Sequence record: NC_007603.1
Length of the DNA: 46,219 nucleotides
Strand: one strand, 5' to 3'
Origin: Escherichia phage Rtp
Under the pieces are notes generated by a model that saw only the letters and a program-made list of their open reading frames with translations, was not told the origin of the DNA and did no database searches. A program made the position numbers and the translations under genes. Positions 3,081 to 46,219 of this stretch are shown in pieces (position 1 is the stretch's first letter; the number at the start of each line of letters is the position of its first letter).

Positions 3081-3120
3081 CACGAATTGCTAAAACAGTA
3101 CCGGGGTAATTTGTTATAGT
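3078..3120 (+). promoter_or_regulatory. palindrome-promoter cassette
   Basis: TAGCACGAATTGCTAAAA at 3078; 22-bp spacer; TATAGT 3115-3120 followed by TACCCCATCGACAAC leader. Confidence 0.5.
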
Positions 3121-3151
3121 TACCCCATCGACAACTACCAAGGATTAAGCC

Positions 3152-6319: not shown

Positions 6320-6364
6320 CACTTTTTGTTAAAAGAAGAGGCCCAATCAATGAGATAATGGGCC
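6317..6364 (+). promoter_or_regulatory. palindrome-promoter cassette (variant TAGCACTTTTTGTTAAAA)
   Basis: TAG shared with the terS stop; 22-bp spacer; GATAAT 6354-6359 inside inverted repeat GGCCCA/TGGGCC. Confidence 0.45.
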
Positions 6365-6387
6365 CAATGAAATAACGAGGTGATGAT

Positions 6388-29628: not shown

Positions 29629-29671
29629 TAGCACGAATCGCTAAAGACAAAATTAAAAGGCGGGGTATGAT
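29629..29671 (+). promoter_or_regulatory. palindrome-promoter cassette
   Basis: TAGCACGAATCGCTAAAG; 22-bp spacer; GGGGTATGATTACCCC containing TATGAT. Confidence 0.5.
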
Positions 29672-29700
29672 TACCCCATCAACAACGAACGAGGTTAAAG

Positions 29701-33738: not shown

Positions 33739-33803
33739 TGTGTAAAGTCTCCATTTGTAAAATAGCACGAATTGCTAAGTTGGATTGTAGCATCTTTCAG
33801 GCA

Positions 33804-37798: not shown

Positions 37799-37838
37799 CA
37801 CTAATTGCTAAAGGCGATTTTAAAAGATGGGGTATAGT
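37796..37838 (+). promoter_or_regulatory. palindrome-promoter cassette
   Basis: TAGCACTAATTGCTAAAG shares TAG with the upstream stop; 22-bp spacer; GGGGTATAGTTACCCC. Confidence 0.5.
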
Positions 37839-37874
37839 TACCCCATCGAAACGAAACGAAGAGAGAGAAACAAA

Positions 37875-42192: not shown

Positions 42193-43776
42193 TCACCCCA
42201 ATAGTCGTGGATTAACGTAAACTTTATCACCAATCAGGCACGTATAGTTTTTCTCATCAAGCATTGGCAGTAAGCGATCTTTAATCTTTGTCATTACACC
42301 AGCTTGAGCCTCAAACGGCTTAACCTTTCGAGCTGCCTCATACAATGAACGAATACCAACTACACCTTTCCCGTTCTTGCCTTGCTTGATCAGTATATCA
42401 ACCAGCTTGCTCATCTCAGCATGGTCGCCAGCGTGACCAGCAGCGTTAGCTGATGACAGATACGTCTTGCTCAGCTCCTGGAACATAATCACAGCTTCTT
42501 GCATGGTATCAAGTTCAATCTCTCTGGATTTCTGTGGACTACCGCCATTTGGGTTGAACCAGTTGCGCACAGTGTGAAGAACAGCTGCAATCCTGATGGC
42601 CTGCTTATCGAACTTACCCAACGCGCCACGTAACATTGTGTGTGAATACTTCCCGCCATCTGCAAGGTGAGGCTCCATCTCCTGACGCGCACGGTTGAGG
42701 TATTTCATCGCTGAGTTGCTCACTGTCAGCTTAACATCTTGCTCATTCATTATTTCATGAACTAAACGGAAGTAATCTGCCTTCAGCTCGCCATTAATTG
42801 GTTCGTATGTTGAGTTGCCATTCTCATCAACGAATACGCGCTCACCAAGGAATGATTTTTCACGAACCAAAAGGAAACGTTCAGATACACCGATACCACG
42901 CGCACCAGCATTCATGATGGCGTTGATTGTTTCATCCTGCGCAATTACAGAGATGCAACCCATAGCAACGAAACTCATGTTATTTTCTGCGTTGGCACGC
43001 GCGATAGATACGTTACCGGCATCCCATGCCTTAAGCACAAGTTCGCTGTTCGTTTTCTTAGAGCCATCACCATAGGTCATGCCAAGAAGTGAATTGACGC
43101 TAGTTGCTTCATCCGAGATTACAGCGAAGTTACCCTGTCGGTTGTTTATTCGCGCAAGACCTTCCGGAGTGGTATCTGACACTGGAAATACGATATCGCA
43201 CATCTTTTCCAGCTTTTCCTCTAAATCCTCTTTTTCCTCAAACAGCGCCGCCATCTCTGATGGTGACTTCTCCTGCTTCATCTCTTTTGATAATACAGAT
43301 AGTTTTGCCATGATCTTCTTGCGCTCACGCTTTCTCAATTCATTCAGTCGCTCAGTCTCAGCAATCATTGGAGCAATTGAAAGTGAGTTGATGGCTGATT
43401 TACCTGTCGATGGTGGTTGGCTTGTCACGACATAAAGCGAAGTTGGCTGCTGAGTTCCATGATACTCAACAGTAAAACGGCCCAGCATGGCAGCGGAAAT
43501 ACACCCCAGAAAGTGCATATAAGCTGAAGACTCAGGGAACTGAACAGAACGGGCAATATTGGCTGAAAGCTTACCAACAACATCAATGTCATTACCGAGT
43601 GAGATTACGGGATACTTGTCATTAGCCGCATCAATCTCGACTGGTGCTTTCCAGAATGATTGAGACTGACGATAGCCATTAGCATTAATAGCGACGCGCA
43701 GGGGTGGGAGGTTGTCTGCGGCAGCAATTGCCATAACCTGTTCAACAGATAGTTTATCTTCGTTGAAATCAAACAT
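42193..43776 (-). CDS. P-loop NTPase (putative replication / primase-associated ATPase)
   Basis: 527 aa; Walker A-like PPSTGKS; cassette promoter variant upstream; function not resolved. Confidence 0.55.
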   Translation of the reverse strand: MFDFNEDKLSVEQVMAIAAADNLPPLRVAINANGYRQSQSFWKAPVEIDAANDKYPVISLGNDIDVVGKLSANIARSVQFPESSAYMHFLGCISAAMLGRFTVEYHGTQQPTSLYVVTSQPPSTGKSAINSLSIAPMIAETERLNELRKRERKKIMAKLSVLSKEMKQEKSPSEMAALFEEKEDLEEKLEKMCDIVFPVSDTTPEGLARINNRQGNFAVISDEATSVNSLLGMTYGDGSKKTNSELVLKAWDAGNVSIARANAENNMSFVAMGCISVIAQDETINAIMNAGARGIGVSERFLLVREKSFLGERVFVDENGNSTYEPINGELKADYFRLVHEIMNEQDVKLTVSNSAMKYLNRARQEMEPHLADGGKYSHTMLRGALGKFDKQAIRIAAVLHTVRNWFNPNGGSPQKSREIELDTMQEAVIMFQELSKTYLSSANAAGHAGDHAEMSKLVDILIKQGKNGKGVVGIRSLYEAARKVKPFEAQAGVMTKIKDRLLPMLDEKNYTCLIGDKVYVNPRLLG

Positions 43777-45110: not shown

Positions 45111-45350
45111 TCATTTCACCTCGTCAAAAGTTGCAACCCCAGGAATAAACATCCCAACCTTCCAACCCGCAATGGCAATCCATCCAGAATCGTGCTTGTG
45201 TGGTCGCTCAGCGCCATTAATCACCCATTCGTTCGGGATTATCTTCCCGTTAATGATTAGCGGCTCAGCGTCGTATACAGAGCCTTTAACGAATGGCGTT
45301 AATACTTTCTTGTCGGTACTTGTAATGCAATTGGTGCAGCGAATTTTCAT
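45111..45350 (-). CDS. hypothetical protein (about 79 aa; start uncertain)
   Basis: ORF track 45111..45446 trimmed to internal ATG 45350 because the upstream part overlaps a better-supported small ORF. Confidence 0.35.
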   Translation of the reverse strand: MKIRCTNCITSTDKKVLTPFVKGSVYDAEPLIINGKIIPNEWVINGAERPHKHDSGWIAIAGWKVGMFIPGVATFDEVK

Positions 45351-45360
45351 ATCTAAATAC

Positions 45361-45537
45361 TCAAATAAATGGTAGGCATTCAGTGCAGCCAAGGCCATCG
45401 CAGCACAGGAATTCATCCTCTGACTGGAATTGTTTCGCCAGATCAATGTCTAACTTTCCGCGCACCACAAGGTCAGTGTAATCTTCATTAAGCCCAATCA
45501 GTGCGCATTCGCTTCGTAATTCGTCTTTCTTATTCAT
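45361..45537 (-). CDS. small Cys-rich ORF (58 aa, CCDGLGCTEC)
   Basis: ATG with GAGGTGGG SD immediately after the upstream gene stop; not in the ORF track. Confidence 0.35.
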   Translation of the reverse strand: MNKKDELRSECALIGLNEDYTDLVVRGKLDIDLAKQFQSEDEFLCCDGLGCTECLPFI

Positions 45538-45545
45538 TTCCCACC

Positions 45546-45749
45546 TCAGAAGTTACCAAGAACCAAAGACATTTGCTTGCGAGTCTTGCACTCAGACAGC
45601 TTACCGAATAAAGTCTTGGCCTCAATATCATTAGCCTGTTTTGCATAGAATGCGCAGTCACAGGCAATATCTTTAACAGCGCGGCGAGCTACCTGAATCT
45701 GCATTGCGATTTCGTTTAAAGTGTTCTTGATTGCGATATCCATCTTCAT
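45546..45749 (-). CDS. hypothetical protein (67 aa)
   Basis: ORF track; first gene downstream of the leftward promoter cassettes at the window end. Confidence 0.5.
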   Translation of the reverse strand: MKMDIAIKNTLNEIAMQIQVARRAVKDIACDCAFYAKQANDIEAKTLFGKLSECKTRKQMSLVLGNF

Positions 45750-45875: not shown

Positions 45876-45918
45876 ACTATACTTCTTTTCTTCACTGCCG
45901 TTTTAACAAAAAGTGCTA
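45876..45918 (-). promoter_or_regulatory. palindrome-promoter cassette (minus strand)
   Basis: Minus-strand TAGCACTTTTTGTTAAAA; 22-bp spacer; TATAGT. Confidence 0.45.
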
Positions 45919-46117
45919 TTTACTAACTTTCTACTTCATTTACTTCTTTCGAGGAACCCGGTCAGACTTTGCTGCCGGAGAAGGTGTCTGGGAGTTTACC
46001 TATTCGGAAGTGACTCAACGTGCCCTTTCTCAACACTTGCCGGCATTTTTCATCCGGACGATTCGACCTCTGGGAGGCAGCTACTTGGCGTTCGCTTCAC
46101 TGCTTCCTTGAGATACA

Positions 46118-46159
46118 TATTACCAGTTTCTCGATTTATGTCTTTAGCAAAAAGTGCTA
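46118..46159 (-). promoter_or_regulatory. palindrome-promoter cassette (minus strand), second tandem copy
   Basis: Minus-strand TAGCACTTTTTGCTAA, about 20-bp spacer, TAATAT. Confidence 0.4.
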
Positions 46160-46219
46160 TTCGTTGGATTTATGGATTGTTGAAGATATTGCAATGATTC
46201 ACATGATTATTGCACGTAT

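Follow-up and report, generated by a model that had tools for sequence, protein, structure and literature searches.

The closest described relatives of the gene considered here are hypothetical proteins of phages in the Drexlerviridae, which are gathered in the protein family PHROG 9053. They include UMO77986.1 from phage ZL19, QGH77227.1 from BEK1-1, Rogue1_0073 from Rogue1, bas02_0060 from JeanPiccard and MM01_00068 from MM01. Members have a length of 55-63 amino acids (aa), a conserved cysteine at position 11 (C11) and a C-terminal CC-x4-C-x2-C cluster, and are encoded near the start of a leftward operon of small genes that lies upstream of a DUF3987 helicase gene. For Escherichia phage Rtp, the original paper by Wietzorrek et al. 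from 2006 reportedly noted that the genome termini hold numerous small genes without a known function. The analysis presented here concerns a short minus-strand open reading frame (ORF) of the Rtp genome at 45361..45537 (sequence record NC_007603.1; the window is the whole stretch of 46,219 nucleotides), which is the gene rtp74. The product of this gene does not differ from the PHROG 9053 family in length, Cys pattern or genomic position.

The ORF begins with ATG, encodes the 58-aa product MNKKDELRSECALIGLNEDYTDLVVRGKLDIDLAKQFQSEDEFLCCDGLGCTECLPFI and ends with TGA. An exact-sequence look-up finds this product on deposit as rtp74 of Escherichia phage Rtp (CAJ42278.1, YP_399018.1, UniProt Q333B0). 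It also matches the PHROG 9053 profile over its full length, with residues 2-58 aligned to profile positions 3-59 of 59 (E 5.2e-37), and the annotation of phage Rogue1 calls its own homologue "similar to ... rtp74 [Enterobacteria phage RTP]". An earlier note on this DNA had reported an unannotated minus-strand frame of 58 aa with a strong Shine-Dalgarno (SD) site at the stop of the upstream gene. The frame and the SD site are present as described, and "unannotated" is correct for the ORF track that accompanied that note but not for the databases, given that the calls of both rtp74 (58 aa) and the adjacent rtp73 (79 aa) have been public since the Rtp genome was deposited. In short, rtp74 is a genuine protein-coding gene, one that public databases and PHROGs already list, and it is not new. 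We hold it to be very probable that, overall, rtp74 is a real gene in second position of a leftward operon, that it encodes a small, acidic, Cys-rich product, and that a longer ORF of 111 aa that overlaps it is an artefact.

A reading frame of 58 codons is not beyond chance by itself, and dozens of that kind occur in the ORF listing for 2.7 kb. It is the SD site and the conservation of the frame, rather than its length, that place rtp74 above chance. The SD site, GAGGTGGG, overlaps the TGA stop codon of rtp75, and its pairing with the anti-SD sequence of the 16S rRNA is worth -10.1 kcal/mol, a value equalled or exceeded by only 0.7% of 20-mers on the same strand. The homologues are likewise preceded by strong SD sites, such as ACGAGGAG and CGAGGGG. 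A codon alignment was built from 18 distinct phage genomes, and the ratio of nonsynonymous to synonymous variation (pN/pS) was pooled over pairwise comparisons. Of the 58 columns at each codon position, 26 vary at position 1, 20 at position 2 and 51 at position 3 (chi-square p = 6e-9), and pN/pS for the whole gene is 0.26. At all five Cys codons TGC and TGT alternate, but the amino acid is kept.

This pattern indicates that the rtp74 frame is under purifying selection as a protein. The same region might in principle be conserved as DNA or RNA, for instance as a regulatory element, and we assign that reading a negligible probability. Nothing specific speaks for it, and variation is concentrated at third codon positions, Cys codons change synonymously, and the length of 55-63 aa, the SD site and the start codon are all conserved. 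It is the codon-position pattern that refutes it.

The ORF track places a different frame over part of rtp74, namely 45111..45446, which starts with TTG and encodes 111 aa. The earlier note had observed that the 58-aa ORF overlaps the 5' part of this track ORF, and had proposed that the latter is too long; the overlap amounts to 86 nt, and the shortening is borne out by several lines of evidence. The frame-conservation check named in that note was run. Over the 84 nt of rtp74 shared with the long ORF, pN/pS comes to 0.20 when the codons are those of rtp74, 0.93 when they are those of the long ORF and 1.8 for the remaining frame, such that constraint in the overlap favours the 58-aa frame. The Rtp73 protein begins MKIRCTNC and covers positions 1-79 of 79 of PHROG 4448, and every homologue in 140 phage records aligns with the 79-aa form from its residue 1-2 onward. 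An exact-sequence look-up in a collection of approximately 15 billion proteins did not find the 111-aa form. Relatives of Rtp also have a stop codon in the way: the 10-nt junction between rtp74 and rtp73 is shared by 16 loci, and 14 of them read TGA-GGATTGAGAT-ATG, where the TGA lies, in the rtp73 frame, two codons before the ATG. Among these 16 loci, the junction TGA is lost only in Rtp (GTATTTAGAT) and in ZL19 (GGATTTAGAT).

The comparison with relatives also accounts for how the long frame arose. Two G-to-T changes in the Rtp junction have removed the TGA that closes the frame in relatives, so the 111-aa frame is open in Rtp; the same two changes reduce the SD site of the next gene to -2.2 kcal/mol. 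The opposite assignment, in which the TTG-start ORF at 45111..45446 is real and contains the 58-aa ORF merely by chance, can appeal to the fact that the former is the longest ORF at that place. Its chance of being correct is minimal, given its pN/pS of 0.93 against 0.20 for the rtp74 frame, the TGA in relatives, the 79-aa homologues with full coverage of PHROG 4448, and a TTG codon at 45446 without a usable SD site upstream, and it is refuted by the frame-conservation test. The conservation evidence indicates that the 111-aa ORF is an artefact and that rtp73 starts at the ATG at 45350.

A narrower possibility is that the overlap is coding in both frames in Rtp alone, or perhaps also in ZL19, where loss of the TGA would permit an N-terminally extended Rtp73. 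The Rtp frame is indeed open from 45446, and the junction TGA of ZL19 has also gone, but the ZL19 frame is closed by another stop codon further upstream. Given also that the TTG lacks a properly spaced SD site, that the extension shows no constraint and that the arrangement would be a lineage-specific accident, dual coding is considered extremely improbable, although marginally less so than a genuine 111-aa gene. With rtp73 taken to start at its ATG, the locus is a clean example of a longest-ORF track that mis-calls a start as the result of two point changes in a 10-nt junction.

Since its own SD site is degraded, Rtp73 may depend on translational coupling in Rtp, and its translation is probably coupled to termination of rtp74 10 nt upstream. 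The two genes are not always found together. In phiJLA23, rtp73 occurs without a full rtp74, and the rtp74 and rtp73 homologues of JeanPiccard, BEK2 and others are separated by another small gene. The junction itself, TGAGGATTGAGATATG (stop, SD and ATG; 45351-45363 of the window), persists in relatives whatever the downstream cassette, be it rtp73 or a gene whose product begins MKIKLVKF... or MKVKCLNN.... Because it precedes different cassettes, the junction looks like a boundary of recombination or of a module, with the SD site of the next gene on it. As a separate observation, the metagenomic protein P0137 (61 aa) is Rtp74-like to residue ~43, then continues in an alternative frame (...RAAMDLAASNVYHLFED) and ends at the junction TGA. 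This protein reflects either a frameshift or an error in sequencing, and it illustrates the product of the alternative frame.

The gene rtp74 is the second of a leftward operon of small genes that runs rtp75-74-73-72 and onward, and that ends at the gene for a DNA helicase of the DUF3987 / PHROG 2373 type (42193..43776). Its nearest neighbours are rtp75 (67 aa), rtp73 (79 aa) and rtp72 (54 aa), and the small genes of the operon match PHROGs 4448, 4548, 5407 and 2684. The genes that flank rtp74 differ between phages. In at least 7 of 18 relatives, a promoter box of the type described below lies 71-75 nt upstream of the ATG of the homologue, so that the homologue is the first gene of its transcription unit in those relatives.

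Some lineages have a damaged or truncated copy. The copy in phage IME542 (loci L003/L007, 1458-1651) has no in-frame ATG, GTG or TTG, the ATG nearby lies in another frame, and the annotation omits the copy. In phiJLA23 (locus L020, 1192-1263), only the last ~24 codons of rtp74 are kept. Because IME542 lacks an in-frame start and phiJLA23 has only a remnant, rtp74 appears to be dispensable, and the two sequences indicate that it is being lost in some lineages.

Homologues of Rtp74 are found by tblastn in 99 phage records, and a protein database holds 91 protein clusters of 55-63 aa with 67-95% identity to Rtp74. The records that were opened belong, by their taxonomy lines, to the subfamilies Braunvirinae and Rogunavirinae of the Drexlerviridae. 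The homologue is annotated as a separate coding sequence in most records, including those of ZL19, BEK1-1, Rogue1, MM01, JeanPiccard and others. Two records name unexpected hosts: PP134917.1 ("Pseudomonas phage PsgS01F") and MG065688.1 ("Campylobacter phage A110b") carry Rtp-like genes in genomes of ~44 kb, with protein identities of 78-80% for rtp74 and 91% for rtp73. It is possible that these two phages, whose recorded hosts are Pseudomonas syringae and Campylobacter jejuni, are T1-like coliphages that entered as contaminants or with mis-assigned hosts.

Beyond the phage family itself, no characterised relative was found. Searches with Rtp74 against Pfam, NCBIfam and PADLOC gave no match at E <= 1, and among all PDB sequences the family profile found nothing better than a chance match (E = 2.1). 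Among 1.84 billion representative proteins, a profile search recovered, besides the family itself, two truncated or frameshifted forms and a repeat protein of 1549 aa. In a searchable library, no literature was found that names rtp74, PHROG 9053 or the homologues.

The 1549-aa metagenomic protein, P0139, has surface-protein-like repeats, six of which match Rtp74 profile positions 15-38 (for example at 999-1022), with a summed E of 4e-9. The matching motif is G-L-N-x-D-Y-T-x-x-V-x-x-G-K-x-D-x-D-L-A-K. The match is probably a convergent short three-helix repeat motif, FIVAR-like in character. The FIVAR/GA-type modules of Gram-positive surface proteins are, like Rtp74, three-helix bundles of similar size. 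Comparison with the FIVAR/GA module gave no significant profile or fold match, and the top Foldseek match in the PDB, itself non-significant, is the albumin-binding module of protein G.

The protein has a net charge of -7 and an isoelectric point (pI) of 4.2, and all 90 family members compared are acidic, with pI values of 4.05-4.87 and net charges of -3 to -10. Exactly five Cys residues are present in 77 of the 90, and CC-x4-C-x2-C in 82. Residues conserved in at least 90% of members are C11, C45, C46, C51, C54, G48, G50 and P56, whereas positions 47, 49, 52 and 53, which lie between conserved Cys residues, vary freely. Rare natural variants that lose C45 or C46 retain the other, and so have four Cys residues. 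The CxxxxxCxxC cluster that the earlier note pointed out is confirmed as C45-C46-x4-C51-x2-C54, that is, C-x5-C-x2-C counted from C45.

AlphaFold2 was run twice, on 33 and on 90 sequences, and both models place helices at residues 3-14, 18-25 and 31-45, with predicted local distance difference test (pLDDT) scores of 80-90 in the helices and overall scores of 77 and 75. The tail from residue 46 is modelled at pLDDT 50-64, and the alignment of 90 sequences gave no higher confidence in this Cys-rich part. The 13-residue C-terminal tail reads CC-DGLG-C-TE-C-LPFI. Rtp74 would be a cytoplasmic protein, by these models a small three-helix bundle followed by a Cys-rich tail. One metal ion would be held by C11 of helix 1, one of C45 and C46, C51 and C54, which would clamp the tail to helix 1.

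That four of the five conserved Cys residues bind one metal ion, most likely Zn2+, and so pin the tail onto helix 1, is a proposal for which we judge the chances to be evenly balanced. The Cys pattern fits a metal site or an obligatory Cys cluster and falls short of proof, and on this pattern the zinc binding that the earlier note thought possible is plausible. An iron-sulfur (Fe-S) cluster, or a redox or disulfide role for the Cys residues, would be compatible with four to five conserved Cys that include a CxxC, as in a [2Fe-2S] or [4Fe-4S] site or a redox pair, and metals are not distinguishable from sequence alone. In proteins as small as this, Cys4 sites most often hold zinc, stable disulfides are unlikely in the reducing cytoplasm, and Rtp74 has no match to WhiB-like or other Fe-S families in Pfam or NCBIfam; on balance, Fe-S or redox chemistry is thought improbable here.

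Structural zinc, as the preferred reading of the Cys residues, invites comparison with well-known small phage proteins that have Cys4 zinc sites, such as Com of phage Mu and the C4 fingers of the DksA/TraR type. Like these, Rtp74 is small and has at least four conserved Cys residues that include a CxxC knuckle. Unlike these, it has one CxxC only, such that the other ligands would be the CC pair and the distant Cys of helix 1; it is acidic rather than basic; its body is helical and not a zinc ribbon; and it has no Pfam or NCBIfam match. A classical zinc ribbon or C4 zinc finger was accordingly rejected: the single CxxC is C51-x2-C54, the body is all-helical without strands in the models, and neither a Pfam or NCBIfam family nor a PDB sequence is matched at E <= 1. 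In WhiB-like proteins the Cys order is C-x(14-22)-C-x2-C-x5-C. A WhiB-like Fe-S protein was rejected, given that the spacing in Rtp74 is C-x33-CC-x4-C-x2-C and that there is no Pfam Whib match. Also rejected was a Cys-rich precursor of a ribosomally synthesized and post-translationally modified peptide (for example of the SCIFF/ranthipeptide type), for which NCBIfam and Pfam gave no precursor match. A scan of the genes neighbouring rtp74, which are small unknowns and a helicase, found no maturase, although only the neighbours were scanned.

The genomic context recalls another group of well-known proteins, the small acidic early inhibitors, which include T7 Gp2, Ocr and many anti-CRISPR and anti-restriction proteins. 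Rtp74 resembles them in being under 100 aa and strongly acidic, in being encoded promoter-proximally in an early-type operon of small variable genes, and in being dispensable and patchily distributed. Unlike a true relative, it shows no sequence or fold similarity to T7 Gp2, Ocr, anti-CRISPR or anti-restriction proteins in the searches made, and the likeness would be one of genomic context. A tentative suggestion, which we think may well be wrong, is that Rtp74 is not an enzyme, but binds another macromolecule as a dispensable accessory early protein of the host take-over or counter-defence type. Like many small acidic promoter-proximal phage proteins, it would act stoichiometrically on a host or phage macromolecule.

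A more specific version of this suggestion, and a less probable one, is that Rtp74 might found a fold class of its own, a small, acidic, metal-clamped three-helix protein that T1-like phages would make from the first gene of an early operon so as to bind and neutralise a host factor. This version is drawn from the context, namely a promoter-proximal place in a variable accessory region, acidity and conserved Cys residues, together with the absence of a known relative. Its candidate targets could include proteins of DNA repair or replication restart, a defence system, or some component of the transcription apparatus for the marbox-type promoters described below.

Mimicry of the acidic C-terminal tip of the host single-stranded DNA-binding protein (SSB) was also considered, in which Rtp74 would titrate SSB-interacting proteins. 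The SSB tip is DDDIPF-COOH, an acidic run that ends in I-P-F with a free carboxylate. Rtp74 is acidic throughout, and 15 of the 90 family members end in ...C-I-P-F-COOH, some after D-D or Q-D, but the likeness is four residues long, and 62 members, including Rtp74, end in LPFI and 9 in LPW, such that the terminal Phe carboxylate is absent in most. With most members ending in LPFI, SSB-tip mimicry was rejected as a general explanation and is given very little credence. The five-Cys pattern, the acidity and the frequent first-gene position make Rtp74 a reasonable, though not exceptional, candidate for a metal-stabilised host-interaction protein.

Features of the rtp74 locus and of the related promoter boxes in the window (positions in the 46,219-nt window; on the minus strand, boxes are given from their 5' end)
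Feature	Position	Strand	Basis or detail
rtp74 coding sequence (58 aa + TGA)	45361..45537	-	Exact protein match, PHROG 9053, purifying selection
SD site of rtp74, GAGGTGGG	45540..45547	-	Overlaps rtp75 TGA stop (45546..45548); anti-SD duplex energy
CC-x4-C-x2-C cluster (codons 45-54), proposed metal site with C11 (45505..45507)	45376..45405	-	Cys conservation, TGC/TGT alternation
Junction of 10 nt, rtp74 stop to rtp73 ATG	45351..45360	-	GTATTTAGAT in Rtp, GGATTGAGAT in most relatives
rtp73 coding sequence (79 aa + stop), start at ATG 45350	45111..45350	-	Exact match to CAJ42277.1; PHROG 4448
Spurious, non-coding 5' extension of the track ORF (TTG 45446)	45351..45446	-	pN/pS 0.93, stops in relatives, 111-aa product unrecorded
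rtp75 (67 aa), upstream gene of the same leftward operon	45546..45749	-	ORF listing, exact look-up
Putative proximal promoter of the rtp75-rtp74 operon	45876..45919	-	Box ATAGCACTTTTTGTTAAA at 45919..45902, 20-nt spacer, -10 TATAGT at 45881..45876
Putative distal promoter of the same type	46117..46160	-	Box ATAGCACTTTTTGCTAAA at 46160..46143, -10 TAATAT at 46122..46117
Boxes, start positions	1367, 2359, 3077, 3459, 4027, 6316, 8425, 16303, 21393, 29628, 33762, 35294, 37795, 38478, 40395	+	
Boxes, start positions	46160, 45919, 44966, 43850, 28001	-	
Inverted repeats at the -10 hexamer, examples	37825-37850, 3105-3135, 29655-29680, 1385-1415, 6335-6365	+	
Inverted repeat at the -10 hexamer, example	43830-43805	-	

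The non-coding 470 nt upstream of rtp75 contain two copies of the repeat ATAGCAC-N4-TGYTAAA, and a third copy lies at the end of rtp72. The rtp75-rtp74 operon would be transcribed from two promoters of this box type, at ~46160 and ~45919. A scan with the sigma-70 consensus missed these promoters because they have no -35 hexamer. Across the genome, the 18-mer box occurs in 20 copies at two or fewer mismatches, against 0.97 expected, and the copies are intergenic and all but one have the orientation of the genes that follow them. Exactly 20 nt after the box, a TAnnnT hexamer is found in 15 of the 20 copies (background 1.6% per position). In the -35 region, 16-18 nt from the TAnnnT hexamer, only 1-4 of 6 positions match TTGACA, and there is no good -35 element.

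The repeat matches a known binding site of the host regulators MarA, SoxS and Rob. The marbox has been defined as 5'-gcannwwntgnnaaa-3', and promoters that carry it have been divided into classes (PMC12052159). The Rtp box is an exact marbox in forward orientation that is centred near -42, which is the class II arrangement. Exact matches to gcannwwntgnnaaa number 14 in the Rtp genome, compared with 1.1 expected. An older marbox consensus, said to come from Martin et al. in 1999, is AYnGCACnnWnnRYYAAA, and it has 13 matches against 0.04 expected. The tblastn search for a MarA or SoxS homologue in the phage found none (best E = 1.8), with approximate query sequences.

For phage TLS, the repeat has been reported as aaATAGCACnnnTTGnTAAAA, with similar repeats remarked in T1, Rtp and Rogue1, and has been read as a stoperator-like, enhancer-binding or UP-like element (PMC11447400). 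No literature was found that links the T1-like repeat to MarA, SoxS or Rob. Several details of the boxes stand apart from this comparison. In many of the box promoters the -10 hexamer lies inside a short inverted repeat, such as GGGGTA-TAGT-TACCCC, GGGGATT...AATCCCC or GGCCCAAT...ATGGGCC, and a conserved leader, TACCCCATCGAAACGAAAC, follows many of these inverted-repeat promoters. The inverted repeat at -10 and the leader could together be an operator for a second regulator or form a hairpin at the 5' end of the RNA. The box at 33762-33779 (+) opposes the local minus-strand genes; after it come a weak hexamer and a terminator-like hairpin (AAAAACCTCCCGAGGGAGGTT).

As regards rtp74 itself, its product is one among the many functionally uncharacterised small proteins encoded at the ends of T1-like genomes and holds no surprise beyond that, and the identification of the gene is a correct but ordinary finding. 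The distribution and arrangement of the boxes suggest that T1-like phages may drive most of their transcription through the host activators Rob, MarA and SoxS. If this is true, this family of phages would transcribe most of its genome by way of these host proteins, which may matter more than rtp74 itself.
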